Origin: a virus
Direction: 5' to 3' (one strand)
Length of the DNA: 64,000 bases
IMG/VR virus record: IMGVR_UViG_3300043449_002292
Location: 32,001 to 96,000 of that record
The notes below the pieces were generated by a model, which searched no databases, was not told where the DNA came from, and saw only the letters and a list, made by a program, of their open reading frames with translations. The position numbers and the translations under genes were made by a program. Below are positions 5,826-32,542 of this stretch, piece after piece; positions within the stretch are counted from its first letter, which is position 1; each line of letters starts with the position of its first letter.

Positions 5826-6284
5826 TCAGATCAGTGCTATCTGGCGAACCTTTACACCCGCTTCTCTCAAGAGATCGATGCCTGACGTGTCACGATAGCG
5901 TTCGATGTAGACTATCTCATCGATTCTAGCATTAACAATCGCCTTCGCGCACATACGACATGGGCTGAGACTCACGTACATCTTCTTACGTTTCGGGCTG
6001 TTAAAGTCGAGTTTGATGAGAGCATTTACCTCGGCATGGATAAACCCTGATTCACCGGCGGCGGAGGATTCACGTGTGTTTGATCCGCCAGCGTGATCCC
6101 CGTTGTATCCGAGGGAGAGCAACTGCGTGTTATCATCCGTGACCACGATTGCGGCCACCTTAAAGTTGGGATCTGGGGATCTTTTTGAGATTGTTCGGAC
6201 TACGTCAGCCCAGATAAGATCCCAGCTGGGACGATCGTCGATTGGATTACAGCGTAAATCGTTGAGAAAATCGTTATGGGTCAA
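5826..6284 (-). CDS. dCMP deaminase
   Basis: GYNG, HAEVNAL and SPCRMC zinc-deaminase motifs. Confidence 0.92.
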   Translation of the reverse strand: MTHNDFLNDLRCNPIDDRPSWDLIWADVVRTISKRSPDPNFKVAAIVVTDDNTQLLSLGYNGDHAGGSNTRESSAAGESGFIHAEVNALIKLDFNSPKRKKMYVSLSPCRMCAKAIVNARIDEIVYIERYRDTSGIDLLREAGVKVRQIALI

Positions 6285-7129
6285 GCCCGCTCCTGATCAA
6301 AGATTGTCTCTATGTTAACATTTTTTGGCAGGCTGAAACCCGCTGCCTTTCGATGCCCACCTCCGCCGAACCTCTTGGCGACCTCGCTCACGTCGGAATC
6401 CTCATGATGAGCGCGGAGGCTCACCTTCACCTGCCGCGTCTCGTGGTCATAGAACCAGATCACCGCGAAGTCGCACTTGGGAGACAGGGCCGCCCCAATC
6501 TCCGACATCCAGTGCGATGAGTTAACGACAAGAACGTCCTTTCCATCTATCTTACGTGGTGTGGCATGCTTCGCTATCTTTGAGATGACAGTCTTCGAAT
6601 ACGCGAGGATGTAAGCCCCTCGTTCCTGGGCGTCATCCACCGCAGAATCGTCGAGGTATTTATCGAACTCCTCGAAATCGAATGGGACCATGTCGAAGGC
6701 TGCCGCGAACTCCTTTGAGTATGGGATCTGCCACTTCCAGAGATCACGGTCCTCGATGAATTTTATCATGCGAGGCGCCTCCTTACCTGGATGGAAGAAA
6801 TTCCAGGCAAGCATCGCACCGCTGTGATTCATATCAAATCGGGTGCATGAGACGTCGTGAAGCTCAACCATCGCTGACTTGTGGTGATCGATGATGAGGA
6901 AGTTGCGTGCTTCCTTTATCAGCTGCTTCGTGGTCACGTTGTCATACGAGAAATCCAAAACCACGACGTTCTTACCCTTCACGTCGGGTGGGGTTTCACC
7001 ATACTTCGCTGCGTGATATTCGGCTCGATCTCCAAGGAGCTTCCAGGCAGAGTAAGCTGCGCCGAATCCATCAGTGCAGCTCGCGTGGTAAATAACAAGA
7101 TCGACGCTTGAAGGTTCCAGCATGCTCAT
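6281..7129 (-). CDS. DHH/DHHA1 phosphoesterase (NrnB-like)
   Basis: YHASCTDG, VLDFS, IDHH, GGGGHRKAAG. Confidence 0.9.
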   Translation of the reverse strand: MSMLEPSSVDLVIYHASCTDGFGAAYSAWKLLGDRAEYHAAKYGETPPDVKGKNVVVLDFSYDNVTTKQLIKEARNFLIIDHHKSAMVELHDVSCTRFDMNHSGAMLAWNFFHPGKEAPRMIKFIEDRDLWKWQIPYSKEFAAAFDMVPFDFEEFDKYLDDSAVDDAQERGAYILAYSKTVISKIAKHATPRKIDGKDVLVVNSSHWMSEIGAALSPKCDFAVIWFYDHETRQVKVSLRAHHEDSDVSEVAKRFGGGGHRKAAGFSLPKNVNIETIFDQERA

Positions 7130-9131: not shown

Positions 9132-10115
9132 TCACCTCTTGAAAAAATGATAACCCTTGAAATCAGTCGAGAGCAGAAATCTAATTGACAGCTTTTCATC
9201 CTTCATCTTCCTCGCTCTAACCGAGCAGAGGATGTCACACCAATCCCTGATCAATGACTGTGAAAGCTGTTCATCAGTCTGATCGATCAGTTTCGGGGAG
9301 ACGAATACCATCCCGTCCCTGATCACGCCTTCGTTGGTCGAACGAACAGCCTCCTCAACGCGTATCAGATCGACTATCGGAAAGACCTTCGGATACGGCT
9401 GCATCGGACGACCGAAGTTATCGCTGGAATTCGCGATCGCGTCCAGCATCTCGAAGTCCCTCTCGTAGCAGTGGAGCGAGTTCGAGGTGTGGACATACTC
9501 ACCGAGCTCGACCCCCAGCTCATTCGCCATGATCTCCTGCATCGTGGTGAATGCCGGAACGTCGTAGGCGATGCCGAGGATGATATCGCTCGACCGCATG
9601 TTGACGTGGAGGTGGAGCTTGCCCTCACGGATAAAGAACTGGAGCGCGAGGGTGCACGGGACATCCTTCACTGCGTGGAGGGAGTCGTCAGGGGTCCTGA
9701 TGTGGATCACCGCCCGACGGGAGTCGGGATCCTTCCGGAGCTCCTCCTTCACGTAATCCCACTGGACGATACCGCCTGCCGCGATCCGATCATGCGGTCG
9801 GAAGATTCGAGCCCCGTAGGCGGAGTTCGCCGTCTTGCCGTCATCGCTGATTCCCTTCCAGAACGATGCGTAATACGAGATCCACTCCGTGGAATCGTTA
9901 CCGCTCAGATACCACAGAGTCTCCGCGACGAAATATGACAGGGAGAAATTTCGAGCTTCCACAAATGGGAGACGATCACGCGGATCCTTAATCCTGAACT
10001 GAACGCCCAGTTTCTCCTTGATCTTCATCCCACGAGGAGATGAAACAAACTCAGACTCATCCCTGACCATCCTACAAAGATCAATGTAGGCCTGCGTGAA
10101 ATTACCGTATGTCAT
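9132..10115 (-). CDS. Thymidylate-synthase-fold enzyme with a dCMP-type specificity residue (dCMP hydroxymethylase-like)
   Basis: DSRRAVI, DVPCT, MRSSDIILGIAYD (Asp at the E. coli ThyA Asn177 position), SLHCYE; ATG 10115 overlaps the kinase stop (ATGA). Confidence 0.88.
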   Translation of the reverse strand: MTYGNFTQAYIDLCRMVRDESEFVSSPRGMKIKEKLGVQFRIKDPRDRLPFVEARNFSLSYFVAETLWYLSGNDSTEWISYYASFWKGISDDGKTANSAYGARIFRPHDRIAAGGIVQWDYVKEELRKDPDSRRAVIHIRTPDDSLHAVKDVPCTLALQFFIREGKLHLHVNMRSSDIILGIAYDVPAFTTMQEIMANELGVELGEYVHTSNSLHCYERDFEMLDAIANSSDNFGRPMQPYPKVFPIVDLIRVEEAVRSTNEGVIRDGMVFVSPKLIDQTDEQLSQSLIRDWCDILCSVRARKMKDEKLSIRFLLSTDFKGYHFFKR

Positions 10116-10639
10116 GTATTCATCTCCAACCACGTGAGAATCTCGGTGATCTCCCTGTTAAGATTCTCGTCATCGACCCAAAGTGTGAGGCACTCGCATT
10201 TCGTCCACGCTTGGAATTGCTCATAGAGACCGTCCAGCTTCCTGAGGGCTTCCTCGTCAATGTAATCGTGCAGGTCGTCACGTATCCCAGAGTAGCTCTT
10301 GCGACGGCAGATAACGAACTTACCGCCAGCCTCAGCAAACTTGTCATCAATCTTCCTGAGGATCTCAAAGTCAGTGTCCCTGTTGAAGAACTGCGCATAC
10401 ACCCACTCGGAGGCATGATTTCGGTCCATGATCACGCTGGTTCCCGTCTGCAGGAGGAACTCGGTCAGGAACGTGGATCCGTAAATCAGCAGATTCTTGA
10501 AGTAGCTCGGATCGTGAAGATCCGCATACCATTCGCCCTTGTTCTTGAAAGTAGGAACTCCGAGAAGTCTCGATAGCTCAGCGGCGATCTCGGACTTACC
10601 CGTCATGTCTGGACCCTCGAGTCCGATCAAAATTGCCAT
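10112..10639 (-). CDS. dNMP kinase (thymidylate-kinase-like)
   Basis: EGPDMTGKS P-loop, MDRNHASEWVY. Confidence 0.85.
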   Translation of the reverse strand: MAILIGLEGPDMTGKSEIAAELSRLLGVPTFKNKGEWYADLHDPSYFKNLLIYGSTFLTEFLLQTGTSVIMDRNHASEWVYAQFFNRDTDFEILRKIDDKFAEAGGKFVICRRKSYSGIRDDLHDYIDEEALRKLDGLYEQFQAWTKCECLTLWVDDENLNREITEILTWLEMNT

Positions 10640-22180: not shown

Positions 22181-24207
22181 GATCTAGTCACCCGGTGCTC
22201 ATGACTGTTCGGACTGTACGATTCAGCGTTCGTCATCGTATAAACATCGTAGGAGGTTGCCGTCCCACCTGAATCGAGGACGTTAAAGGTCGACTTCAAG
22301 TAACTAGTGGTGATGTTCGCGTTCAACGCGTCAACGTCAATGACAGACGTCAATCCCGTTCCCGCGGGCAGTGCAAATGAGAAGATCCTGTTAATCGTAC
22401 CCGTACTGATGGAGAAGGGATTGCTGCCGTCCGTGAAGATCTTACCCGACAGACCACGGACATCATTCGAGCTCAGCGGGGCCTGCTCAACCGACCCAAA
22501 GAAGATGAGGTTCAGGAAGGATACGACGGTCACGGCGCTCGTGACACCCGCGGAGGAGAGGTGCTGCTGGTAGGTATCGATCACTCGGACGCGGTAACGG
22601 ATGGATGTCGAAGATTTCAGGTTCTGGTCGTTGTGGTTGAAGAGTGTGATGTTGGAAGTTCCCGGTCCGACAGATACAGGGTTCACGTTCAGGTCGATCC
22701 AAGTGTTTCCGTCCGTCGAGTACTGCAGCACGTAACTCACGAGGTTCACCAATGGGCTGATGCGTGTGATGGTTCCCGTGAGGTTGGAGGAAATATTGCC
22801 CTTCTCACGCTTCAGATTCGCTTCGATCTGCTCAAGGGACGCTCCTGCGACTGCGAGGGCGATCGTCGGCACCTGGTAGGCAGCAGGTGTCAGGTTCAGG
22901 GTCGCTGTTGCGGTAGCGCCGACTGAATCGGTGACCGTGTATCGATAGTTGAAGGCGGCGGTATTGAATGCCGTATCCGACAACGTGTGCGTGAAGCTTG
23001 ACGCAGATGAGGTCGACGTGCTTAGGGTCGTCCACCCTCCAGCGCCGCCCCGGCGCCATTCGAGGACGGCGGCGCTGACCGTCGCATTCAGGCTGTTTAT
23101 GGTGTGTGAGAAGTTGATGACGTTGCTGATGTTTGTCTGGTTGAAAGAGATCGTCGTGGATGACGTCAGACCCACCGTCGGGTTGATAGGCTCCACCGTC
23201 GCGAGGGCGAGGACCTCGGCCGCCGTCTTCCCAGTTGCGGGGATGGTATCACCCGACGCATAGCGGCCGAATGTCTTGCCACCCGAGAGGCTCACCACGA
23301 GATCATTCTGGAACACCGTCTCGCTCTGACCCCCGCCGGTCGTCGCGATCGTTATTTGACCTGTTGATCCTGTCGTGATCGAGATACCTTGGCCCGCGAC
23401 CATATAGTCGCTGCCATCGTAAAGCTTGGTCAGTGAGCCAGTAAGACTGGTGACAGAGATGTCACCGCCTGTGATGCTGACACTTCCGGAGTTCTGCGTT
23501 GCTATGGATCCAAGACCCAGGTTCGTCCGAGCGGTGGCTGCGTCTGAGGCACCGGTACCACCATCCGCTATGGCAAGATCCGTAATACCCGAGATCGTCC
23601 CACCTGTGATGGTGACGCTGTTCGAGTTTTGGGTGGATATTGTTCCCAGTCCGAGATTAGTTCGAGCTGTCGAGGCTGACGTCGCTCCCGTACCTCCGTT
23701 CGCAACTGTGACCGGTGTTGAGAGAGCAACAGTCACCGTAGATCCTGCACCGCCATCCGTGATGGTGATGCCAGTTCCTGCCTGAATCCTCGAAGTCAGA
23801 TACGATGGATCGACGCTGAGGGATAGTAAGCCACTCGGATCAGCGACCCCGACAAGACCGCTCCCATCCTCTACGCTCACGCCAGCTGATAGGGATGCAA
23901 GGTACGTTTCGTCAAGCGAAATGGTCGCGCTCCCATCGCTACCGGTCACGACGAGGGTTCCAGCTCCGGGTTTTATCGCTGACGTGCCGTCGAGGAGCGT
24001 TAGGGCACCCTTGCATCCCTCATCGATCGTCAGTCGACCCGTGATATACTCGTCGCCCTCGATCCTTAAGGACGCGCGCTTGTAGCCCTCCAGACCGATC
24101 TGGAGCTCATGCGGAGCAATCACCTTCGTGATGTCCAGCGTGCGCTTGTTTTTAACTACGACGAAGTCTTTCTTATCGACCTCACGTCTATCAATCTGCG
24201 TCGACAT
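22177..24207 (-). CDS. Tail fibre protein
   Basis: Two GGTGA...ARTNLGLG.I.TQN fibre repeats; Ser/Thr/Gly-rich. Confidence 0.8.
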   Translation of the reverse strand: MSTQIDRREVDKKDFVVVKNKRTLDITKVIAPHELQIGLEGYKRASLRIEGDEYITGRLTIDEGCKGALTLLDGTSAIKPGAGTLVVTGSDGSATISLDETYLASLSAGVSVEDGSGLVGVADPSGLLSLSVDPSYLTSRIQAGTGITITDGGAGSTVTVALSTPVTVANGGTGATSASTARTNLGLGTISTQNSNSVTITGGTISGITDLAIADGGTGASDAATARTNLGLGSIATQNSGSVSITGGDISVTSLTGSLTKLYDGSDYMVAGQGISITTGSTGQITIATTGGGQSETVFQNDLVVSLSGGKTFGRYASGDTIPATGKTAAEVLALATVEPINPTVGLTSSTTISFNQTNISNVINFSHTINSLNATVSAAVLEWRRGGAGGWTTLSTSTSSASSFTHTLSDTAFNTAAFNYRYTVTDSVGATATATLNLTPAAYQVPTIALAVAGASLEQIEANLKREKGNISSNLTGTITRISPLVNLVSYVLQYSTDGNTWIDLNVNPVSVGPGTSNITLFNHNDQNLKSSTSIRYRVRVIDTYQQHLSSAGVTSAVTVVSFLNLIFFGSVEQAPLSSNDVRGLSGKIFTDGSNPFSISTGTINRIFSFALPAGTGLTSVIDVDALNANITTSYLKSTFNVLDSGGTATSYDVYTMTNAESYSPNSHEHRVTRS

Positions 24208-24214
24208 TCAGACC

Positions 24215-24221
24215 TAAATAT
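24215..24221 (-). promoter_or_regulatory. Putative late promoter ATATTTA
   Basis: 8 nt upstream of ATG 24207. Confidence 0.5.
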
Positions 24222-24223
24222 GA

Positions 24224-24249
24224 CAAGGGACCGAATCGTCGGTCCCTTG
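24224..24249 (-). terminator. Hairpin/terminator abutting a late promoter
   Basis: caagggaccga-atcg-tcggtcccttg perfect 11-bp stem after the dCTPase stop. Confidence 0.7.
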
Positions 24250-24256
24250 CTCTCAT

Positions 24257-24640
24257 TCAGTATCCGTCTTTTAGTCTTCGACAGATTTTCTCGTGCTTCT
24301 TGAGGTATGCTTCATGCAGCTCATCAGGAGTGACACCCACGAGCTTCAGTGTCGTAAAGAAGTACTTCATCGCATCGACGATCTCCTCAAGGAATGCCTC
24401 ACGATCGAGATGAGGAACGTCGGTCTGACGATGAGGCTTGGCATTCTTCAGCTCCTGCAGAGCCTCGAACATCTCCTCCACACCGCGAAGGGTCACGTCA
24501 CGGACAAGCGTCTGTGATTGCTTCGTCGAGAGATCGATCGGCCACTGGGGGTAGTAACCCTCGAAGCGTTCACAAAGGAGCTGCATGAACTCCTCGCGAA
24601 GCTCGAACATCTGATCGAGCTTGTCAGTTGACGTCGACAT
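24257..24640 (-). CDS. All-alpha NTP pyrophosphatase (dimeric dUTPase / T4 gp56 dCTPase-like)
   Basis: VEEMFEA, FLEEIVDA, C-terminal RRLKDGY; probable start 24640. Confidence 0.8.
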   Translation of the reverse strand: MSTSTDKLDQMFELREEFMQLLCERFEGYYPQWPIDLSTKQSQTLVRDVTLRGVEEMFEALQELKNAKPHRQTDVPHLDREAFLEEIVDAMKYFFTTLKLVGVTPDELHEAYLKKHEKICRRLKDGY

Positions 24641-24866
24641 TCGCCATGCCCTCGGCGGCGAGCTCATCAGCCTTGTCCGAGAGACGCTGAACAGCATCCA
24701 GGAAGGCCTGATTGTCAGCGTCGTTGATCATGAGCTTGCTCCCGTCGACCGTCAGTCGAAGGGTCCTGAGATTATCGATGATGTCAGTTCCAGTCAGCAG
24801 GGCGAGCTGAAGAAGGTCGACGATGCGGACGATAGCCTGATCAGAAAGTGTAACTGTCTCGTTCAT
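24624..24866 (-). CDS. Hypothetical protein
   Basis: MNETVTLSDQAIVRIVDLLQLALLTGTDIIDNLR; AGGAG RBS. Confidence 0.7.
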   Translation of the reverse strand: MNETVTLSDQAIVRIVDLLQLALLTGTDIIDNLRTLRLTVDGSKLMINDADNQAFLDAVQRLSDKADELAAEGMANVDVN

Positions 24867-24916
24867 TTGATTTCTCCTGTTAGATTGTAATAGAAGCTGA
24901 GGAGGTTTATAGGAAG

Positions 24917-25726
24917 CTAGTTCTGTCTTGTCGGCGCCCACCAGGTGGTTCGACCGTCGAGTGTCTCTTCCCTGATTACCTCTTCTCCATCTTCGTCTTT
25001 AGTTCTTCCATAGCAGAGAAAAGCTTCTCCGTAGCCACCCTCGTTGTTATCAAAGTCCTTATATGATTTGATCGTTGCCCCCTGAGACTGGTATGAATCC
25101 CGGAGCACTCTCTTGATGCTGTCATTGAGAGCTTCGAACTCCTCTAGACTCAGGGAATCAACCTTTCGGTGCGGAGAGAGCCGGGCAAGCCAGAGCGAAT
25201 CGGCCTTCACGTAATTACCAACGCCAGCGATGATCCCCTGATCCATCACCGCCTCGGCAAGGGTCCACTTCGGTTTCTTCAAGAGGGACTCCTGGAACCG
25301 CTCATGGCTCACGTCCTCGGCCAGCATGTCAGGACCCAGGGTCCTTAGCTTGTCAGCCAGCTTCCGCCGCCCCCGGACCCACTTCAGAGTCCCAAAGTTA
25401 CGGGTGTCATTGTAGTAGACATCCGTTCCATCGTCGAGGCTCAGACGCATTCTGGCGTGGCGCGATGCACTTCGTGACCAATGACCCGTCATGCCCAGAG
25501 TCGACCAGATCGAGGAGTCCCCGCCGTCGAGCAGGATGTAGATGAACTTGCCATGGCACCCAGCGCCGACGATCCGCTTGGGCAGCTCAGAAACAAGTTC
25601 GTCGTAACCGTCGAAGGGTCGCTTATCGTAGCGTCCTGACAGGATCTTCAAACCCACGATCGTTCGGTCTGTGAGAGCTCGAGCGAGACCCTCGGCAGCG
25701 AGCTTGCATTCGGGACCTTCAGGCAC
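24917..25726 (-). CDS. Fpg/Nei family DNA glycosylase/AP lyase with a zincless finger
   Basis: MPEGPE, HGKF, LGMTG, DTRNFG, LGPD, GVGNY; C-terminal GRTTWW with no Cys zinc finger. Confidence 0.93.
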   Translation of the reverse strand: MPEGPECKLAAEGLARALTDRTIVGLKILSGRYDKRPFDGYDELVSELPKRIVGAGCHGKFIYILLDGGDSSIWSTLGMTGHWSRSASRHARMRLSLDDGTDVYYNDTRNFGTLKWVRGRRKLADKLRTLGPDMLAEDVSHERFQESLLKKPKWTLAEAVMDQGIIAGVGNYVKADSLWLARLSPHRKVDSLSLEEFEALNDSIKRVLRDSYQSQGATIKSYKDFDNNEGGYGEAFLCYGRTKDEDGEEVIREETLDGRTTWWAPTRQN

Positions 25727-26144
25727 TTGCCACCCCCAGGGTCTTCATCAGATGATGATGGTAATCATTGAGAGCGTGATCGTTCGGTTGCACGGCGCGC
25801 CAATCGCCGAGGATGAAGATCCGATAAGCGTCATCACCGTACTTGCCGATACCGTGGAGCTCCTTAGCCTGCTTCCAGCCGCCCGCAGCATACTCAGCCG
25901 ACATCCGCTTGAGGGTCTGCGTTCGCTTCCGCTGCATGCCGAGCGGCCGGATGAGATCCTCGAGGTCAGCGTCCGGTGCTGTTGCAAGCGCCTGTGGTGT
26001 GGGCCAGCGTTGGAACATCTCCTCGACGACGGGTTCCATCTGAGCACGCTTCGTGAGATTGAGGCACAGGCAGCAGACGAGGATCTTCCAGCCGTCTGGC
26101 CAGTACTTCTCCTGAATGAGACCGAATTTAGGTGGAATCCACAT
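25719..26144 (-). CDS. MBD4-like HhH-GPD mismatch DNA glycosylase
   Basis: WIPP..GLIQE, WKILV..LCLN.T, ELHGIGKYGDDAYRIF, PNDHALNDYH follow the MBD4 glycosylase-domain pattern. Confidence 0.88.
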   Translation of the reverse strand: MWIPPKFGLIQEKYWPDGWKILVCCLCLNLTKRAQMEPVVEEMFQRWPTPQALATAPDADLEDLIRPLGMQRKRTQTLKRMSAEYAAGGWKQAKELHGIGKYGDDAYRIFILGDWRAVQPNDHALNDYHHHLMKTLGVASA

Positions 26145-26184
26145 GTATAGATTCTACCTGAAATTTTAAGTTTTACAGGATCGA

Positions 26185-26562
26185 CTACCCGACTCCTACG
26201 AAGCCGTTTGAACCCGTGATGGTCAGGAAATTCCTGGTTGGAATGCCCGTGAGCCCCGCGATAACCGAATACGATATCGAGGCAGCGGTTGAGCTCGAGA
26301 GGAACAAGGTATCCGTTCTAATTTCACCAGTATAGCTGCTTCCCGACGGAACCGAGAAGTAGTTCGTTCCCTTGACGCCAGCTTCAGTAAACCCAAACCT
26401 GAGTGTCAATGAGCTGTTATTCTGTATCGTGAAGAAGCGGGTTACAAACGGGAAACTTACCTGGTTCACAGTCGTAACCGTCGAAGACGTTACGAATGGA
26501 ACTGCCGAAACCTGATAGGCTGGGACGAAACCCTCATGCATCGATGGATTATTCAAGCTCAT
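26185..26562 (-). CDS. Small beta-rich virion protein
   Basis: AYQVSAVPFVTSS...FPFVTRF; ATATTTA at 26579-26585. Confidence 0.7.
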   Translation of the reverse strand: MSLNNPSMHEGFVPAYQVSAVPFVTSSTVTTVNQVSFPFVTRFFTIQNNSSLTLRFGFTEAGVKGTNYFSVPSGSSYTGEIRTDTLFLSSSTAASISYSVIAGLTGIPTRNFLTITGSNGFVGVG

Positions 26563-26609
26563 GACATCTCACTGAGCTTAAATATCACGCGCGTACAAAG
26601 CTGACAGTC

Positions 26610-27446
26610 TTATTTGGCTGGTAAAGCAAGCAAAGCTGACCAGACGGAACTGTCCTGGGCTGCTACCCTGCTCTTAGCATCCGCTTCAGAGACCTTCAGG
26701 GCTGCTGCGAGAGCTGCGATGCTCTTCGGACCGATAGCACCATCGATCTTGCCGATATCAAAGCCTGCCCTGCAGAGGAGAGCCTGCGTCACCGCTGGGA
26801 AACTCTGAAGATCCCCGTGACCTACAAGAAGGGCACCGCAGAGAGCAGCTTGCTCATAACCGAGACGATCGAGGACGCCTTTGAGTTCGCCCCAGAAATC
26901 GAAGTGCCATGACTCCTTAGCGCTCTCATCCGCTAGCTTGATGACGGGAGACCATCCGAGTGGAATCGCAATCTCCCAAAGCTTGTCAAGCTGCTTGTTC
27001 GCCGGCACACCCGGAAACTTGAGCTCTGAGAGGTGCACGTCGATGCTGCGACCCGCATTATGACCAGAACGACCTGAAAGCGCGACGAACGCATTCTTCA
27101 TGGTCGCTGCGTTCCACTTGGAAGATCCGACCGCCGGTTTGCCAGCGTTCACCCAGTTGTCGTATTTTTCCCTCGCGGTCCGCTGGACTGAAACATCACG
27201 GTGGCATTCCGTAACTCGAAAGTCACCGCCCGCTGCTGCGACCGCATCAGATAGAGACTTCAGGGCAGGTGCCATCTCGGGATGAGCGACACCAGCCTTG
27301 CCGAGCTTCGCAAGCGAAATTAAGTTCGACCTGGGACCACCTGTCCCGCCAGACTTGTTGTATGACGAAGCGATCGAGGAATCAACCGGAACGAGCTTTA
27401 CTGGTGTCATGTTGCTACCCTGCATGGGGAATTGTTGTGCCCCCAC
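26610..27446 (-). CDS. Endolysin: M15 zinc peptidase plus peptidoglycan-binding domain
   Basis: R...Q, SGHNAGRSID, ESWHFD; C-terminal GFDIGKIDGAIGPKS; ATATTTA at 27454-27460; true start may be 27410. Confidence 0.8.
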   Translation of the reverse strand: MGAQQFPMQGSNMTPVKLVPVDSSIASSYNKSGGTGGPRSNLISLAKLGKAGVAHPEMAPALKSLSDAVAAAGGDFRVTECHRDVSVQRTAREKYDNWVNAGKPAVGSSKWNAATMKNAFVALSGRSGHNAGRSIDVHLSELKFPGVPANKQLDKLWEIAIPLGWSPVIKLADESAKESWHFDFWGELKGVLDRLGYEQAALCGALLVGHGDLQSFPAVTQALLCRAGFDIGKIDGAIGPKSIAALAAALKVSEADAKSRVAAQDSSVWSALLALPAK

Positions 27447-27499: not shown

Positions 27500-28132
27500 C
27501 TAGTATCCGAACGCCTCAATCGTATGCTGAAACGGCTTACCCTCGATCTCTCGAACCTGCTGCAGCATCTCCTCCGCTAGCCAGCAGATCTCGCGTTGAG
27601 CGTCTGGCTTCATTCGAAGTCCGAGGAAATGGTTGAAAGATCGCCAGTTGAACATCACGTCCATGGTGATCTGGTTGCCGTATGGAAGGTAGAAGCGTGC
27701 TGATTCTTTGGCTCGCTTTCGATCCATTCCCCCGTCAACAAGCCTCTGCAAGGTCTCATGGTAGCGCATGATCGCGTCTTCCATAAATGCGATATACCTT
27801 GACTGCTCCTCGATCGACCAATCCTTTGGCAGGTAGTACTTGTCATCCTTCAGCTCCTTGTACCGAGCCGACTCGGCATTGATCGAGACCCCGATACGAT
27901 GCTTGAGGAGCTGGACATGGACGCTTGTATCCACTGTTACTAGGAATTGCAGGCTCGACTTTTCAAAAACCGTGTGATGGCCCTGCTCCGCAAGCATTTT
28001 TAGAAGTTGCGGAATTCTGTTACGCTTATCATTGGTAATTTCTCGTGATGTCGACGTCCACGCAGACAATGCGTGCGTTTCGTCTGATCCGTACCACCCA
28101 GTAAGCTGAACCTTGTTATCCTGAAATGACAT
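27500..28132 (-). CDS. thyX: Flavin-dependent thymidylate synthase
   Basis: GHHTVFE, KHRIGVSINAESARY, AKESARFYLP, NWRSFNHFLGLR..DAQREI. Confidence 0.93.
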   Translation of the reverse strand: MSFQDNKVQLTGWYGSDETHALSAWTSTSREITNDKRNRIPQLLKMLAEQGHHTVFEKSSLQFLVTVDTSVHVQLLKHRIGVSINAESARYKELKDDKYYLPKDWSIEEQSRYIAFMEDAIMRYHETLQRLVDGGMDRKRAKESARFYLPYGNQITMDVMFNWRSFNHFLGLRMKPDAQREICWLAEEMLQQVREIEGKPFQHTIEAFGY

Positions 28133-28337
28133 TTCTCAATCTCTCCCTGATGTATTTGTCCCAGGTGATTTCAAATCCCCACTGCACCAGCATGAGAGTG
28201 GGTCCGATGACGATGGTGATTCCTGCGGATTTTGTGACCTCACCAGTGAATGCGAATGCAATCAGAAATCCGCATGACATCGAGAGCACTCGCCAAGCAA
28301 TCACCTTGGCGAGCAGCTCAAGCTTCGCTGGTTTCAC
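28116..28337 (-). CDS. Small membrane protein (DUF2061-like)
   Basis: KVIAWRVLS..., two hydrophobic segments, FEITW. Confidence 0.55.
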   Translation of the reverse strand: MKPAKLELLAKVIAWRVLSMSCGFLIAFAFTGEVTKSAGITIVIGPTLMLVQWGFEITWDKYIRERLRNVISG

Positions 28338-29368
28338 ATAGCCACGCAGACTGTCTCAAGCAAAAGGCGGGTAACGACGTATGGATCGACGTTAGCACAG
28401 GGTCGACGATCCTCGAGGTATCCGCAGCCCTCCTGCGCGACGTGCAAGGGAATCCGAATCGAAGCACCTCGATCGCTCACACCCCATCGAAACTCTCGGT
28501 AGGAGCACGTCTCGTGGTGACCAGTGAGACGAAGCTCAATACCGTGACCGTAGTGAGAAATGTGATGCTCATGGCGAGCGCTAAGCCGTTCGCAAGCTTC
28601 CTTGATCGCATGGATTCCTTCGGGTTCACGCATCCTCTTCGTTGAGAAATTGGTATGGGCACCTGCACCGTTGAGCTCTGCTACAGGCTTCGGATCGAGC
28701 TTCACGGTAATCCCGTGCTTCTCACCAATCCGGTAGAGAAGCCAACGAGCAAAGATGAGGTGATCGGAGACTGTAAGAGCGTCCGCAGTTCCAACCTGGA
28801 ACTCCCACTGGCCGGGCATCACCTCAGCGTTGATTCCGCAGAGTAGGATCCGGGAGTCGAGGCAAGCGGCCATGTGTTCCTCGACAAGCTCACGACCGAA
28901 GACCTCATCGCTTCCGACACCACAGTAGAATGGACCCTGCTGAGGTGGGTATCCACCCGTAGGCCAGCCGAGGGGTCGACCGTCCTTGAACATCGTGTAT
29001 TCCTGCTCGATTCCGAACAGAGGCTCGTGCTCGAGTGTTCTCGCCATGACTTCACGAAGCTTACTGCGAGTATTAGACTCATGAGGCTGCCCATCGGCAG
29101 TAAACACTTCACAAAGAACAAGAATGTGAACTCTCTCGTGATTCTTATCCCGAGTGGGATCGAGTATAAAATGAGCTGGAATCAGGACACAATCGCTCTT
29201 GTCTCCTGTCGCCTGCCCAGTAGAAGATCCATCGAAAGTCCAACGAGGAACATCCTCAATTCCAAAGGGCTTGCTGGAATTATCGTATTGAAAAACTTTA
29301 GTCTTGCTTCGGAGCTTATGGGTTGGCTGGCTTCCATCCTGCCAGATGTATTCGGCAACGATGTTCAT
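28334..29368 (-). CDS. glnII: Glutamine synthetase type II
   Basis: AEYIW, LRSKT, WTFDGSSTGQA, GIEQEY, NAEVMPGQWEFQ, NGAGAH, RLTGHHET, YLEDRRP. Confidence 0.95.
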   Translation of the reverse strand: MNIVAEYIWQDGSQPTHKLRSKTKVFQYDNSSKPFGIEDVPRWTFDGSSTGQATGDKSDCVLIPAHFILDPTRDKNHERVHILVLCEVFTADGQPHESNTRSKLREVMARTLEHEPLFGIEQEYTMFKDGRPLGWPTGGYPPQQGPFYCGVGSDEVFGRELVEEHMAACLDSRILLCGINAEVMPGQWEFQVGTADALTVSDHLIFARWLLYRIGEKHGITVKLDPKPVAELNGAGAHTNFSTKRMREPEGIHAIKEACERLSARHEHHISHYGHGIELRLTGHHETCSYREFRWGVSDRGASIRIPLHVAQEGCGYLEDRRPCANVDPYVVTRLLLETVCVAM

Positions 29369-29373
29369 GACGG

Positions 29374-29976
29374 TTAGTCCAACGTGTACTTGAGGTCAAT
29401 CTTGCAGGTGAGGGTCGGAAGACGGAGCTCATTCGCAAGGTTGTGATTCTTCGCGTCCTGGGCATCGAGATACCAATCCGCGTGACCCTTCTCGTGAACC
29501 ATCTTCAGGAAGTAATCCGAGGGCTTACCGCAGTTACGGGCCATCATCTCGTAGACCTTCTTGTTCAGTCGATCGACCTCCTTCGCGTCGGCCTTGATCT
29601 CCTCGACCTTTCCGAAAGCGCCGGAAGAGACATCATGGATCATGAGGGTCGCGTCAGGGTCCATGTAGCGCATTCCCTCAGCGCCGAAGCTGAAGAGGAT
29701 AGCTCCACAGCTCATTGCCTTTCCCTCGACAATCGTCGCTACAGGAATCTTGGAGGCCCGGATCGAAGAGATCATCGACATAAGGGAGTAGACCTGACCG
29801 CCGTAGCTGTCGATCACCACCGGGATTACCGACTGACCGGTGTTCTGGGCTCGGCTCATTGCGTCCATGAACTCCTTCGCGGAGTCCTCATCGAACTTGT
29901 TGACTCGAATGATGATCGGGTCAACCCGAAGTTCCACTGCCTTGATGTGCTGAGAGACATCTGCGATAAAATTCAC
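29374..29976 (-). CDS. clpP: ClpP-like serine protease subunit
   Basis: IDSYGG, GKAMSCG (Ser), LMIHD (His), DWYL (Asp); start probably GTG near 29976. Confidence 0.88.
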   Translation of the reverse strand: MNFIADVSQHIKAVELRVDPIIIRVNKFDEDSAKEFMDAMSRAQNTGQSVIPVVIDSYGGQVYSLMSMISSIRASKIPVATIVEGKAMSCGAILFSFGAEGMRYMDPDATLMIHDVSSGAFGKVEEIKADAKEVDRLNKKVYEMMARNCGKPSDYFLKMVHEKGHADWYLDAQDAKNHNLANELRLPTLTCKIDLKYTLD

Positions 29977-30052
29977 TGCATACCCCACTTGTGTGATGTT
30001 ACTGATTATTTTTTCGATCTCTTCCTCGGAGTCATTCCGCTTCAGCCTGGCG

Positions 30053-32542
30053 CTACCCACACTTCGCGAAACCGCAGCTTCCACAGGAGAGGCAACCTTC
30101 CTGGTAGATGAGCTCCGAATTTCCACACTGTGGGCACCCTTTTTCAGTTGACTTAGTGCCATCCTTGATATACCCCTTTAAAACCCTTGCAATCACCCTA
30201 GCATATGAAAACATATCGCTATTCTTATCCTTTTGCAACTGCTCCACAACATAATGGAGCGGAACCTCATGACGTAGGGCGAGTGAGATCGTCCTCGTAA
30301 AGGCTCCCTGCGTTGGGTTGTCAAAAAGGTTCACGACGTCCTTGAAGATGAGATTATCGTCATCTCCGACAGGAACAACGAGATTGTAGGTTGCGACGCC
30401 ATCACGCTTACCATTCTTGACGAGTGAGCCAGACTTGTACTTCTTTGGGATCTCGATGTTCTCCGGAATCCCGCAGAAGACCTCATACGGCTTACCCTCA
30501 TTGAGTCCGATCAGGACGAGCCAAGATTCGGTGACGTCACCGTTACGAACTGTCGCACGATGTATGTCACAATCAAGAGACTTCGGACGCTTCGGGATGA
30601 GGCGACCGTCCTCACCCTTCTTTTCCTTCTTCGGTTCATCAACCTGAACAAGAACGCCCGTCCTGCAACCATCGCGATAGACCGTGAAGCCCTTACATCC
30701 CATCTTCCATGCCTTCAGATAGACATCGTTCACGATCTCGCGGGTGGCAGAGTTGGGTAGGTTGCATGTCTTAGAGATCGAGTGATCGATCCACCTCTGG
30801 GCTGCAGCCTGAATCTCAACCGACTTCGTCCAGTCGATGTCATTCGCAGTTCCACCCCAGTATGGGCTCTCCTTCGGGTCGGTCTTACCAGTGATATCCA
30901 TCCACTTCTTGAACCAGTGGTGGTAGACCGTATACTCCTGCCACTTGTCGCCCATCGGATCGACAAAGTCAACCCTGGAAGTGAGATCACCCTGTGTGAT
31001 CTTGCGACGGCGCTTGTAGGAGAGGAGGAATGCGGGTTCGATGCCGGATGTCGTCCGAGTGAGACATGAAACCGAGCCGACTGGTGCCGTGGTGGTAAGC
31101 GCGATGTTACGACGACCCGTGGTCCTCCACATGTCCATAGCATCTTCTTCGCAGGCAGAAATTACCTTTCTGAGATATTTGTGACTCTTTTCCTTCTCGT
31201 AGTCCCATACCGGGAAGGCGCCTCTCTCCTTCGCCATGATAAGTGACGACGTGTGTGCACCGATGGCAAGCTCCTTGTAGATCGACTCTGTGATCTCAAT
31301 TGAGCGACTGTCTCCGTAGCGCACATTTAACGCGGCGAGCGCGTCTCCGAGACCAGTGATGCCAAGACCGGTGCGACGACCGTTGAGTCCTGCAGCTCGG
31401 ATCTTCTGCCAGAGATCAATCTCAATCTGCTTGACATTTGCAGGCTCCTTGTCATTGCGGATCTTCTCAAGAATCCGATCGACACATTCAACCTCGAGAT
31501 CAACGAGATCATCCATCAGGCGCTGTGCCTTCATGACAACCTCATTGAAAAAGTCGAAGTCGAACCTTGCGTCATCAGTGAATGGGTCCCTCACGAATGA
31601 TGTGAGATTGACCACCATCAGACGGCAGGAGTCGTATGGGCTTAGCGGGATCTCACCGCATGGATTGGTGGAGATTGTCTTGTAACCGACATCGCGGTAG
31701 CAATCCACGATACCCTGATCTACCACCGTATCCCAGAAGAGCGCGCCGGGCTCAGCGGAAGCCCATGCAGCATCCACAAACTTATTCCAGACCTGCTTCG
31801 CGTCGACCATCTTGACGATCTCCGCGTCCTCGGGGTGTGCCTCGACCGGCCAGCGAAGGCAGAACCCGACGTTGCTCTCCACTGCCTGCATGAACTCATC
31901 GGTGAAGCGGATGGAGATATTGGCACCGGTCACCTTCTTCAGGTCACGCTTGATATCGATGAAGGTCTCGATCTCCGGGTGCCGGCAGTCGATGGTGAGC
32001 ATGAGAGCACCACGTCGCCCGCCCTGCGCAACCTCACGGCAGGAGTTGGAGAAGCGCTCCATGAAGACGCCGATGCCATCTGTCGTCCGGGCAGCGTTGG
32101 AGGTCGGCTGGCCCTTCGGGCGGATGGTCGAGATGTCAAACCCGACACCCCCACGCCTCTTCATGATCTGGACCTGCTCCTGATCCGTGAAGAGGATCCC
32201 GGCGTAGCTGTCATGCGGCTGGTCAATCACGAAACAGTTCGAGAGCGACTGGAGCTGGTGCGGGTTTCCGATCCCAGACATTGGGGAGCCCTGCGGGACG
32301 ACATCAGCAAAATTCTTCAGCAGATCATAGATCTCATCCTCACCCATCGGATTTGGATACTTCGACTCGATTCGAGCAAACTCACGTGCGAGCCGACGGT
32401 GCATCATGTCAGGATCTACCTCAAGGATGTTATCATCCTTGTCACGCAGGGCGTATTTCATAAAAACATCTGGGGCCAGATCATCATTCTCGAAATAAGC
32501 CGTCGTCCTCTCGAGGACCTCACCCTTGCTGAAAGACATCAT
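30053..32542 (-). CDS. nrdJ: Class II (B12-dependent) ribonucleotide reductase
   Basis: SNCF, RRGALM, TNPCGE, TTAPVGS, SKTCN, TVYRDG; C-terminal CPQC...CGSC. Confidence 0.93.
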   Translation of the reverse strand: MMSFSKGEVLERTTAYFENDDLAPDVFMKYALRDKDDNILEVDPDMMHRRLAREFARIESKYPNPMGEDEIYDLLKNFADVVPQGSPMSGIGNPHQLQSLSNCFVIDQPHDSYAGILFTDQEQVQIMKRRGGVGFDISTIRPKGQPTSNAARTTDGIGVFMERFSNSCREVAQGGRRGALMLTIDCRHPEIETFIDIKRDLKKVTGANISIRFTDEFMQAVESNVGFCLRWPVEAHPEDAEIVKMVDAKQVWNKFVDAAWASAEPGALFWDTVVDQGIVDCYRDVGYKTISTNPCGEIPLSPYDSCRLMVVNLTSFVRDPFTDDARFDFDFFNEVVMKAQRLMDDLVDLEVECVDRILEKIRNDKEPANVKQIEIDLWQKIRAAGLNGRRTGLGITGLGDALAALNVRYGDSRSIEITESIYKELAIGAHTSSLIMAKERGAFPVWDYEKEKSHKYLRKVISACEEDAMDMWRTTGRRNIALTTTAPVGSVSCLTRTTSGIEPAFLLSYKRRRKITQGDLTSRVDFVDPMGDKWQEYTVYHHWFKKWMDITGKTDPKESPYWGGTANDIDWTKSVEIQAAAQRWIDHSISKTCNLPNSATREIVNDVYLKAWKMGCKGFTVYRDGCRTGVLVQVDEPKKEKKGEDGRLIPKRPKSLDCDIHRATVRNGDVTESWLVLIGLNEGKPYEVFCGIPENIEIPKKYKSGSLVKNGKRDGVATYNLVVPVGDDDNLIFKDVVNLFDNPTQGAFTRTISLALRHEVPLHYVVEQLQKDKNSDMFSYARVIARVLKGYIKDGTKSTEKGCPQCGNSELIYQEGCLSCGSCGFAKCG

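Follow-up and report, generated by a model that had tools for sequence, protein, structure and literature searches.

The window analysed here, a stretch of 64,000 nucleotides (nt) covering bases 32001-96000 of the 142,859-bp virus record IMGVR_UViG_3300043449_002292 in IMG/VR (CheckV completeness 43%), carries all of its long open reading frames (ORFs) on the minus strand. Four co-directional, overlapping ORFs lie exactly within positions 24257-26144 and encode a stand-alone DNA glycosylase of the MBD4 type, a zincless-finger Fpg/Nei enzyme, a small conserved protein and an all-alpha nucleoside triphosphate (NTP) pyrophosphohydrolase (Table 1). Judged from their layout, the four genes form one operon, and it is proposed here, with a probability of about 0.62, that this operon guards a cytosine-modified phage genome, the glycosylase and Nei enzyme through repair and the pyrophosphatase through action on the nucleotide pool. 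An earlier reading of the same DNA, made from the letters alone (the original prediction), had described a repair and sanitising arm for modified cytosine, a view that now appears supported by comparison, namely by the signature of a thymidylate synthase (TS) homologue, by gene co-occurrence and by the mutation spectrum of Xp12-group phages.

Table 1 Features of the operon and of the cytosine pathway in the window (positions are those of the window; aa, amino acids).
Feature	Position	Strand	Basis
Stand-alone MBD4-type HhH-GPD DNA glycosylase, 141 aa	25719..26144	-	Human MBD4 domain E 8e-33; Pfam HhH-GPD 36.2 bits
Zincless-finger Fpg/Nei glycosylase/AP lyase, 269 aa, GTG start	24917..25726	-	Pfam Fapy_DNA_glyco and H2TH; mimivirus Nei1 E 7e-39
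Conserved 80-aa protein, ATG at 24866	24624..24866	-	Start and Shine-Dalgarno motif read from sequence; 14-member alignment
All-alpha NTP pyrophosphohydrolase, 127 aa, ATG at 24640	24257..24640	-	phrog_12184; AlphaFold2 fold; acidic motifs
Hairpin, 10-bp stem and 6-nt loop	24224..24249	-	Read from sequence, directly after the last operon stop
TS homologue with dCMP hydroxymethylase signature, outside the operon	9132..10133	-	Pfam Thymidylat_synt 114.6 bits; alignment
dCMP-deaminase-family enzyme, outside the operon	5826..6284	-	Pfam dCMP_cyt_deam_1 70 bits

The genes are tightly packed, with an 8-nt overlap between the stop of the MBD4-like gene and the GTG start of the Nei gene and a 17-nt overlap between the small ORF and the pyrophosphatase start. 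Two starts were revised. The small ORF, which the original prediction had rightly placed in the operon, begins at an ATG behind an AGGAG Shine-Dalgarno motif in place of the listed 105-aa GTG form, and the pyrophosphatase, listed as 24257-24697 (146 aa), is shortened on the evidence of its relatives (n = 16) and the overlap geometry. The hairpin behind the last gene is followed by the AT-rich region in which the next gene, a tail-fibre-like one, starts, and may act as the terminator of the operon; a consensus terminator scan misses it, there being no T-run behind the stem, and promoter and terminator consensus counts across 23900-26800 are at chance level. The gene order of the module is conserved in related metagenome phages at 45-93% identity, so the ORF arrangement is not due to chance. 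A DNA-level search of the operon region against 50,697 phage records gave no match, and neither the MBD4-like protein nor the small ORF has a family in PHROGs.

The product of the first gene exceeds the Pfam HhH-GPD cut-off, and phmmer against the PDB aligns its residues 2-132 with the glycosylase domain of human and mouse MBD4 (E 8e-33), the next family being EndoIII at E 0.09, which bears out the MBD4-type assignment of the original prediction. The phage enzyme is collinear with MBD4/MED1 (PDB 3IHO, 4E9E-H, 4DK9, 1NGN, 6VJW) over ~130 residues and shares with it an HhH-GPD core without an iron-sulfur cluster, in which the catalytic Asp and the base-reading Gln and Tyr are kept. In an alignment of 22 members of the family, which share 34-82% identity with the window glycosylase, the catalytic Asp122 (human D560) and Tyr102 (human Y540) are invariant and Gln11 (human Q449) is nearly so; the window motif LHGIGKYG...PNDH aligns with human HGIGKYG...PEDH, and the equivalents of human Leu506 and Gly507 are conserved. 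In human MBD4, Gln449 is essential and contacts N3 and O2 of the flipped base, Tyr540 reads its O2, and the 5-hydroxymethyl group of 5-hydroxymethyluracil (5hmU) contacts nothing, leaving the pocket open at C5 (PMC3479182). Bifunctional HhH enzymes such as Nth and OGG1 have a catalytic Lys where MBD4 has Tyr540 (PMC8307549), and with a Tyr in place of this Lys the phage enzyme should be monofunctional and leave an abasic site. The substrates of human MBD4 are T, U and 5hmU opposite G (PMC3458566, PMC3479182), the deamination products expected in this phage, and the conserved residues suggest that the 141-aa protein should be a monofunctional G:T/G:U/G:5hmU mismatch glycosylase.

In contrast to MBD4, the phage form has neither a methyl-CpG-binding domain nor a linker, its 141 residues being homologous from residue 2 onwards, and its gene sits in an operon with those for Nei and a pyrophosphatase. 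The Cys4 iron-sulfur loop of Nth, MutY and Mig is also absent, the only three Cys lying in the helix LVCCLCLN and none C-terminally. Because it has no methyl-CpG-binding domain and differs from the human enzyme at several residues (see below), the protein is classed by sequence as an MBD4-type glycosylase domain rather than an MBD4 orthologue. Within the shorter length classes, to which the search was confined, family members comprise 134-176 aa. A role in policing 5hmU opposite A was considered and set aside, as MBD4 requires G opposite the lesion.

The zincless-finger Fpg/Nei identity given to the second gene also held. The protein scores 62.5 bits against Fapy_DNA_glyco and 63.1 bits against H2TH (PF06831; cut-off 34.7), and its best PDB matches are structures of mimivirus Nei1 (MvNei1; 3a46, 3a42, 3vk7, 4nrw) at E 7e-39, compared with 9e-25 for the best bacterial Fpg. 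It has in common with MvNei1 (PDB 3A46, 3VK7, 4NRW) and human NEIL1 a Pro-Glu N-terminus, an H2TH domain and a zincless finger with a conserved Arg. The N-terminus reads MPEGPE (Pro2 and Glu3 after the GTG start), with Pro-Glu likewise N-terminal in at least 20 relatives; the Lys in HGKF aligns with its MvNei1 equivalent; RTTWWAP aligns with RTTYWAP of MvNei1, so that the DNA-contacting Arg is kept; and there is a single Cys in the C-terminal 45 residues, hence no Cys4 zinc finger. Differences are that the phage Nei is ~20 residues shorter than MvNei1, that its similarity to NEIL1 is weak (E ~1e-3) and that its gene is translationally coupled to that of a putative monofunctional glycosylase. 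It also falls below every NCBIfam Fpg/Nei equivalog cut-off (164.7 bits versus 203.3 for TIGR00577, with Nei models far lower). Among phages that share DnaE with the window and whose glycosylases are 45-93% identical to that of the window (the DnaE clade), the Nei gene adjoins the MBD4-like gene at most loci despite local rearrangements, and it is also present, at a non-adjacent position, in two distant near-complete records bearing an MBD4-like gene; overall it was found in 34 of the 50,697 phage records.

Nei and NEIL enzymes act mainly on oxidised pyrimidines. In mammals, the product-inhibited monofunctional G:T/G:U glycosylase TDG is paired with the Nei-type beta,delta-lyases NEIL1 or NEIL2, which process its abasic product, and NEIL enzymes act with PNKP in a branch of base excision repair that is independent of AP (abasic site) endonuclease. 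The phage glycosylase and Nei may be likened to this pairing; a 3'-phosphatase was not found in the sequenced 143 kb (43%) of the phage genome.

Some 15 kb downstream of the operon lie genes for a deoxycytidine monophosphate (dCMP) deaminase, a DHH phosphoesterase, a thymidine kinase, a cupin, an NDP-sugar epimerase, the TS homologue, a kinase, a glycosyltransferase-like protein and DnaE, and a separate ThyX is encoded at 27500-28132. An alignment against ThyA of E. coli, gp42 of T4 and the enzyme of Xp12 shows that the TS homologue carries N177D and L143D and retains D169 (E. coli numbering). In TS homologues, N177D switches the substrate to dCMP, L143D/E is the mark of hydroxymethylases, through water access, and D169N is the mark of 5-hydroxy-dCMP synthases (PMC13326640). 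The window protein thus combines the features of T4-like 5-hydroxymethyl-dCMP (5hmdCMP) synthases (N177D, L143D/E, D169 and the catalytic Cys146), a signature suggesting that the phage DNA probably contains a hydroxymethyl-type cytosine and lending support to the modified-cytosine genome of the original prediction. The glycosyltransferase-like gene does not significantly resemble that of T4 beta-glucosyltransferase (E 0.12), and glycosylation of the modified base therefore stays a guess. The phosphoesterase of this region, of the DHH/DHHA1 type, occupies 6281-7129, between the dCMP deaminase and the thymidine kinase, and may serve either the nucleotide pathway or the cleaning of DNA ends in repair.

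Relatives of the glycosylase are widespread in viruses, with 96 clusters of ~140-aa MBD4-like proteins in the protein database and at least 586 IMG/VR contigs encoding one. In the DnaE clade, the Nei enzyme, small ORF and pyrophosphatase are nearly always encoded within a few kb of the glycosylase, with variable spacing and inserted genes, and the TS homologue, kinase, glycosyltransferase and DnaE genes are often within 10 kb. Cultured phages with the glycosylase, identified by tblastn, are the Xp12 group (including Stenotrophomonas phage AXL_1), Janthinobacterium phage Donnerlittchen and cyanophage S-TIM54. In Xp12 and Donnerlittchen, the MBD4-like gene lies directly upstream of genes for an all-alpha PRA-PH pyrophosphatase fusion, an Asp177 TS homologue, dCMP deaminase and DHFR, while S-TIM54 encodes an Asp177 TS homologue and ThyX. 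The DNA of Xp12 is fully substituted with 5-methylcytosine (5mC), and its TS homologue makes 5-methyl-dCMP (bioRxiv 10.1101/2024.12.05.627091).

To type the TS family across lineages, its genes were sought in the whole records behind 69 IMG/VR loci and each was aligned to E. coli ThyA. All 20 distinct non-canonical TS homologues in viral records bearing an MBD4-like gene are of the Asp177 type; at position 143, 15 of these carry Asp and two carry Glu together with Asn169, with Asn143 in the Xp12 (methyl) type and Cys143 in S-TIM54. The Asn177 genes in such records are high-scoring canonical ThyA, and the near-complete records among them have an Asp-type copy as well. An Asp-type homologue was present in 3/3 MBD4-like-bearing IMG/VR records of at least 90% completeness, compared with a background of 5.7% of the 50,697 phage records with any detectable TS-family gene, and a dCMP deaminase in 5/5 of those at least 70% complete and in S-TIM54. 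The co-occurrence of MBD4-like genes with Asp-type TS homologues that the original prediction had anticipated is therefore seen, with two exceptions (87% and 70% complete) that are taken up below. Other, distant lineages encode a true gp56-like protein (E 1e-22), its gene 3-5 kb away from that of the glycosylase. By sequence, then, unrelated phage backbones repeatedly combine a dCMP-modifying TS homologue with an MBD4-like glycosylase and an all-alpha pyrophosphatase, the subfamily of the latter differing each time. For example, the Xp12-group (Bosavirus) operon shares with the window an MBD4-like gene, an all-alpha NTP pyrophosphatase, an Asp177 TS and a dCMP deaminase, but the two glycosylases are ~36% identical, the Xp12 pyrophosphatase is a PRA-PH fusion rather than dUTPase_2-like, Nei and the small ORF are missing, the TS has Asn143 (methyl) instead of Asp143, and the hosts of these genes are 60-kb PolA siphoviruses as opposed to DnaE giant phages. 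The TS homologues of loci L050 and L098 (genome G005) and of L060, L075, L099 and L103 (G015 and G030) show E143, N169 and D177, the signature of 5-hydroxy-dCMP synthases (PMC13326640); one E143 and N169 copy contains an in-frame TAA inside the Pfam match.

The Xp12 group, in which the glycosylase gene is polymorphic, offers a view of what its absence entails. The gene is present in Xp12, YB23, MET13-T1, Ep029, FMYAK-P1, DoCa6 and AXL_1, and is replaced by a ~75-nt gap in Bosa, DLP4, DoCa10 and Elanor, as well as in the more distant PaMx74, a clean presence or absence at the front of the cytosine-methylation operon, where the site is flanked by a 76-aa gene and that of the pyrophosphatase. A reference-anchored alignment of seven genomes (15,001 columns) gave a tree in which (Bosa, DoCa10) is sister to (AXL_1, DoCa6), followed by (Xp12, FMYAK-P1) and then Elanor, with all supports 1.0. 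Derived states, defined as those private to one tip or clade with all other genomes agreeing, were counted from site patterns (Table 2). Pooled counts of G:C>A:T versus A:T>G:C were 265:10 on gene-less and 119:52 on gene-bearing branches (Fisher p 2.6e-15). Between the sister clades, G:C>A:T changes were 5.2-fold more numerous without the gene (265 versus 51), while transversions were similar (111 versus 90), and a three-taxon version of the count gave the same result. GC content in the aligned columns was 64.6-65.4% without and 66.6-67.7% with the gene. The hosts are interleaved between the clades, DoCa6 and DoCa10 having been isolated on a single strain of X. arboricola, and AXL_1 and DLP4 likewise on a single strain of S. 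maltophilia. An excess of C-to-T change on loss of the gene is what a repair enzyme for 5mC deamination predicts, and it supports this function for the family.

Table 2 Derived transitions on branches of the Xp12-group tree, by presence of the MBD4-like gene.
Branch	MBD4-like gene	G:C>A:T	A:T>G:C
Bosa	absent	141	7
DoCa10	absent	69	2
Bosa + DoCa10 stem	absent	55	1
AXL_1	present	23	3
DoCa6	present	19	4
AXL_1 + DoCa6 stem	present	9	10
Xp12	present	16	26
FMYAK-P1	present	52	9

The fourth gene product matches phrog_12184 ('nucleotide pyrophosphohydrolase') at 5.5e-14 and, at 19 bits and below the cut-off, the C-terminal segment of the PF08761 dUTPase_2 profile, which is the same and only segment that T4 gp56 matches. 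The EE..E and EE..D motifs are invariant in its family (E55, E56, E59, E85, E86, D89), and the AlphaFold2 model (pLDDT, the model's per-residue confidence, 88.6) is a four-helix bundle with helices at 7-25, 40-65, 80-101 and 105-125. The top Foldseek hits of this model (probability 1.0, E 0.08) are human DCTPP1, B. subtilis YpjD, D. radiodurans DR2231, mouse dCTPase and phage dimeric dUTPases, every top row belonging to the all-alpha NTP pyrophosphatase superfamily. The predicted fold and the motifs argue solidly for a place in the MazG/dimeric dUTPase/DCTPP1 superfamily, and the four-helix fold and EExxE/ExxD metal motifs are common to the window protein, T4 gp56 and mammalian DCTPP1 (RS21-C6). 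Of the original description as an all-alpha dNTP pyrophosphatase acting as a dCTPase, the fold is thus retained; the dCTPase label is a reasonable guess and no more, as pairwise similarity to T4 gp56 is marginal (BLASTP E 0.002, over the C-terminal 42 residues only). A phmmer search with T4 gp56 matched one DnaE-clade member at 5e-5. In two related loci (L005:9099-10004 and L045:12049-12990), a dUTPase_2-like all-alpha pyrophosphatase is fused N-terminally to an NT5C-type deoxypyrimidine 5'-nucleotidase just downstream of the module, a one-protein arrangement that may lead from dNTP to nucleoside.

The small protein belongs to a family of 67-128 aa with the core motif LTGTDI[VI]DN[LM]R, in which Q, G-T-D, D and R are invariant across the 14-member alignment. 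Its ORF stands beside the MBD4-like gene at most DnaE-clade loci, including those where Nei or the pyrophosphatase is missing. Pfam returns only a sub-threshold DUF7799 match and NCBIfam none, its ESM Atlas clusters are virus-only and unnamed, and its AlphaFold2 model (pLDDT 87.8) has no significant structural neighbour. A winged-helix-like fold, suggested by weak Foldseek rows against the PDB (TM 0.2-0.36), was rejected as evidence.

Taken together as a pathway, the MBD4-type enzyme would flip out and excise the uracil-type base that arises opposite G when a C5-modified cytosine is deaminated. Depending on the lineage, this lesion would be T from 5mC, 5hmU from 5-hydroxymethylcytosine (5hmC) or, elsewhere, 5-hydroxyuracil (5hoU), and in the present phage most likely 5hmU or a derivative of it; the host Ung would be unable to handle lesions of the T or 5hmU type. 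The coupled Nei-type enzyme could then cut the abasic site by beta,delta-elimination, and might also remove oxidised pyrimidines, leaving a 3'-phosphatase, polymerase and ligase, from the host or encoded elsewhere in the genome, to complete repair. The pyrophosphatase would most likely hydrolyse dCTP and/or dUTP, keeping unmodified C and U out of phage DNA. Deamination itself could stem from spontaneous decay in virions or from the phage's own deaminase; for example, the phage deaminase mSCD-B5, of a kind linked to TS homologues of the Xp12 type, acts in vitro on 5mC and 5hmC when the DNA is single-stranded (bioRxiv 10.1101/2024.12.05.627091). The substrates, the hand-over from glycosylase to Nei, the specificity of the pyrophosphatase and the actual modified base are what we infer from these comparisons.

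Several observations weigh against this proposal. Most cytosine-modified phages, such as the T-even phages, PaMx74 and Bosa, are without an MBD4-like gene, which is therefore dispensable, and the phages of loci L029 (genome G038, 87% complete) and L045 (G052, 70% complete) carry the full module and a dCMP deaminase with no TS homologue or C5-methyltransferase detected, so that they may use another modification route, or none. The glycosylase itself departs from human MBD4 at the Arg468 finger, which is Leu30 in the window and L, Q or M in most of the family, at the pocket residue Gly471, where a near-invariant Arg33 lies three positions downstream of the Arg468 site, and at Lys562, replaced by Ala in the window enzyme; its substrate range may consequently differ from that of MBD4, and a sugar-decorated 5hmU might not fit its pocket. 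The mutation spectrum rests on one loss event in enzymes ~36% identical to that of the window, and so supports the function of the family rather than proving that of the window gene. The tight linkage of Nei is limited to one phage clade and could partly reflect descent, and an Xth-type AP endonuclease, a polynucleotide kinase 3'-phosphatase and both ligase families were not found in the sequenced part of the genome. For the pyrophosphatase, the nearest phage homologues, annotated as dUTPase or NTP pyrophosphohydrolase at 33-35% identity, are from Gordonia and Mycobacterium phages that are not known to modify their DNA.

Some of these points would sit well with a base-excision kit of general purpose, unrelated to base modification, that protects a giant phage of aquatic habitats from oxidative and UV damage and in which the MBD4-like enzyme removes the U and T of ordinary deamination and Nei the oxidised pyrimidines on which its kind mainly acts. 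MvNei1 is its closest structure, and the two fairly complete module-bearing relatives without a detectable TS homologue fit such a kit; it is nevertheless unlikely, given that every non-canonical TS homologue in records with an MBD4-like gene is of the dCMP-acting Asp177 type, that in the Xp12 group the gene has been inserted at the front of the cytosine-modification operon and that G:C>A:T changes rise specifically, and transversions do not, where it has been lost. The same loss bears on an offensive use of the enzymes, comparable to that of the T4 dC-specific endonucleases, whereby a glycosylase with an altered pocket would remove unmodified C (or U) and Nei would cut the resulting AP sites, destroying host or C-containing phage DNA: higher C-to-T change in 5mC phages without the gene is predicted by repair and not by the degradation of host DNA. 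The uracil/thymine-reading Gln and Tyr are moreover conserved, and cytosine is a poor leaving group for this class of enzymes. Such a use would explain the co-occurrence with cytosine replacement and dCTPase-like genes equally well, the pocket and finger residues do differ from those of human MBD4, and the pocket of human MBD4 can accommodate cytosine as an inhibitor (PMC3479182), yet on balance it appears very improbable. A more serious alternative, though not the favoured one, concerns the fourth gene only, which could encode an ordinary dUTPase or house-cleaning NTPase rather than a dCTPase that enforces cytosine replacement. In addition to the annotation of its closest phage homologues, its structural neighbours include the dUTP-specific DR2231 and dimeric dUTPases, and with no gp56, trimeric dUTPase or MazG relative besides this gene found in the sequenced 143 kb, the role of dUTPase is vacant. 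On the other hand, human DCTPP1 and mouse dCTPase are the top-ranked structural neighbours, T4 gp56 does both jobs according to its record annotation, and other MBD4-like lineages have either the gp56-like gene already mentioned or an adjacent PRA-PH-type pyrophosphatase, which suggests that an enzyme of this sort is needed time and again alongside the cytosine pathway.

The kinds of enzyme in the proposed protective operon are already known. New, by the literature searched, are the stand-alone phage form of the MBD4 type with its relocated Arg, the repeated association of its gene with cytosine-replacement pathways and a zincless Nei, and the mutational trace that losing it leaves. A literature search, incomplete in coverage, found no paper describing phage MBD4-like enzymes. 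Work on phage hypermodification has focused on base synthesis and restriction evasion, and its cost has hardly been addressed: where C is fully 5-substituted, each deamination yields a T-like base that is invisible to host uracil repair. A widespread family answering this cost would add a repair arm to modification pathways, and its gene would be a sequence marker of cytosine-modified genomes in metagenomes, predicting an Asp177 TS homologue. Compact (~140 aa) G:T/G:5hmU glycosylases could also find use in methylation-sequencing chemistry.

The family would further bear on the origin of eukaryotic MBD4 and NEIL1-type enzymes. More speculatively, and with the odds rather against it, the MBD4-like enzyme and zincless Nei could be an old phage repair pair for cytosine-replaced genomes that shares a direct origin with the eukaryotic MBD4 domain, and perhaps with the NEIL1 and mimivirus Nei1 types. 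On the same reading, since phage dCMP deaminases of this kind attack 5mC and 5hmC in single-stranded DNA, the glycosylase could be retained chiefly to reverse what the deaminase of the phage itself does to DNA at replication forks. If a shared origin were true, eukaryotes would have acquired their machinery against 5mC deamination from phages, or phages would have received it from eukaryotes. Consistent with it, the closest relatives of the two enzymes among solved structures come from eukaryotes or a giant virus, and the viral contigs counted above compare with 9 matching contigs from metagenome-assembled genomes (MAGs) among 185,579 prokaryote species genomes, in a family-alignment search limited by its patterns; the window glycosylase as a single query gave no match among prokaryote genome contigs. 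MBD4-like genes occur on a 305-kb contig (L113) of the MAG 'Methylococcaceae TMED69' and a 335-kb contig (L118) of the MAG 'Neomarinimicrobiota', which may be misbinned giant phages or true cellular copies.

Directly upstream of the operon, a 125-aa ORF at 26185-26562 matches nothing in Pfam or PHROGs; the related phages L002 and L003 lack it at the equivalent spot, where a VanY-type endolysin gene abuts the glycosylase gene. Between the ribonucleotide reductase (RNR) and ThyX genes lie those for a 344-aa glutamine synthetase with both Pfam domains (28334-29368) and a ClpP-type protease (29374-30162), both conserved in L002 and L003. In the related freshwater phage (L002/L003:11864-12598), a Methyltransf_21 (FkbM-type) gene stands between Nei and the small ORF. 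The RNR gene of a close relative is split around a Vsr-like gene of the homing-endonuclease type, that of another carries an intein (L004:4365-8264, GCA_041442895 contig), and an intein signal is also found in the DnaE of these close relatives (L004/GCA_041442895).

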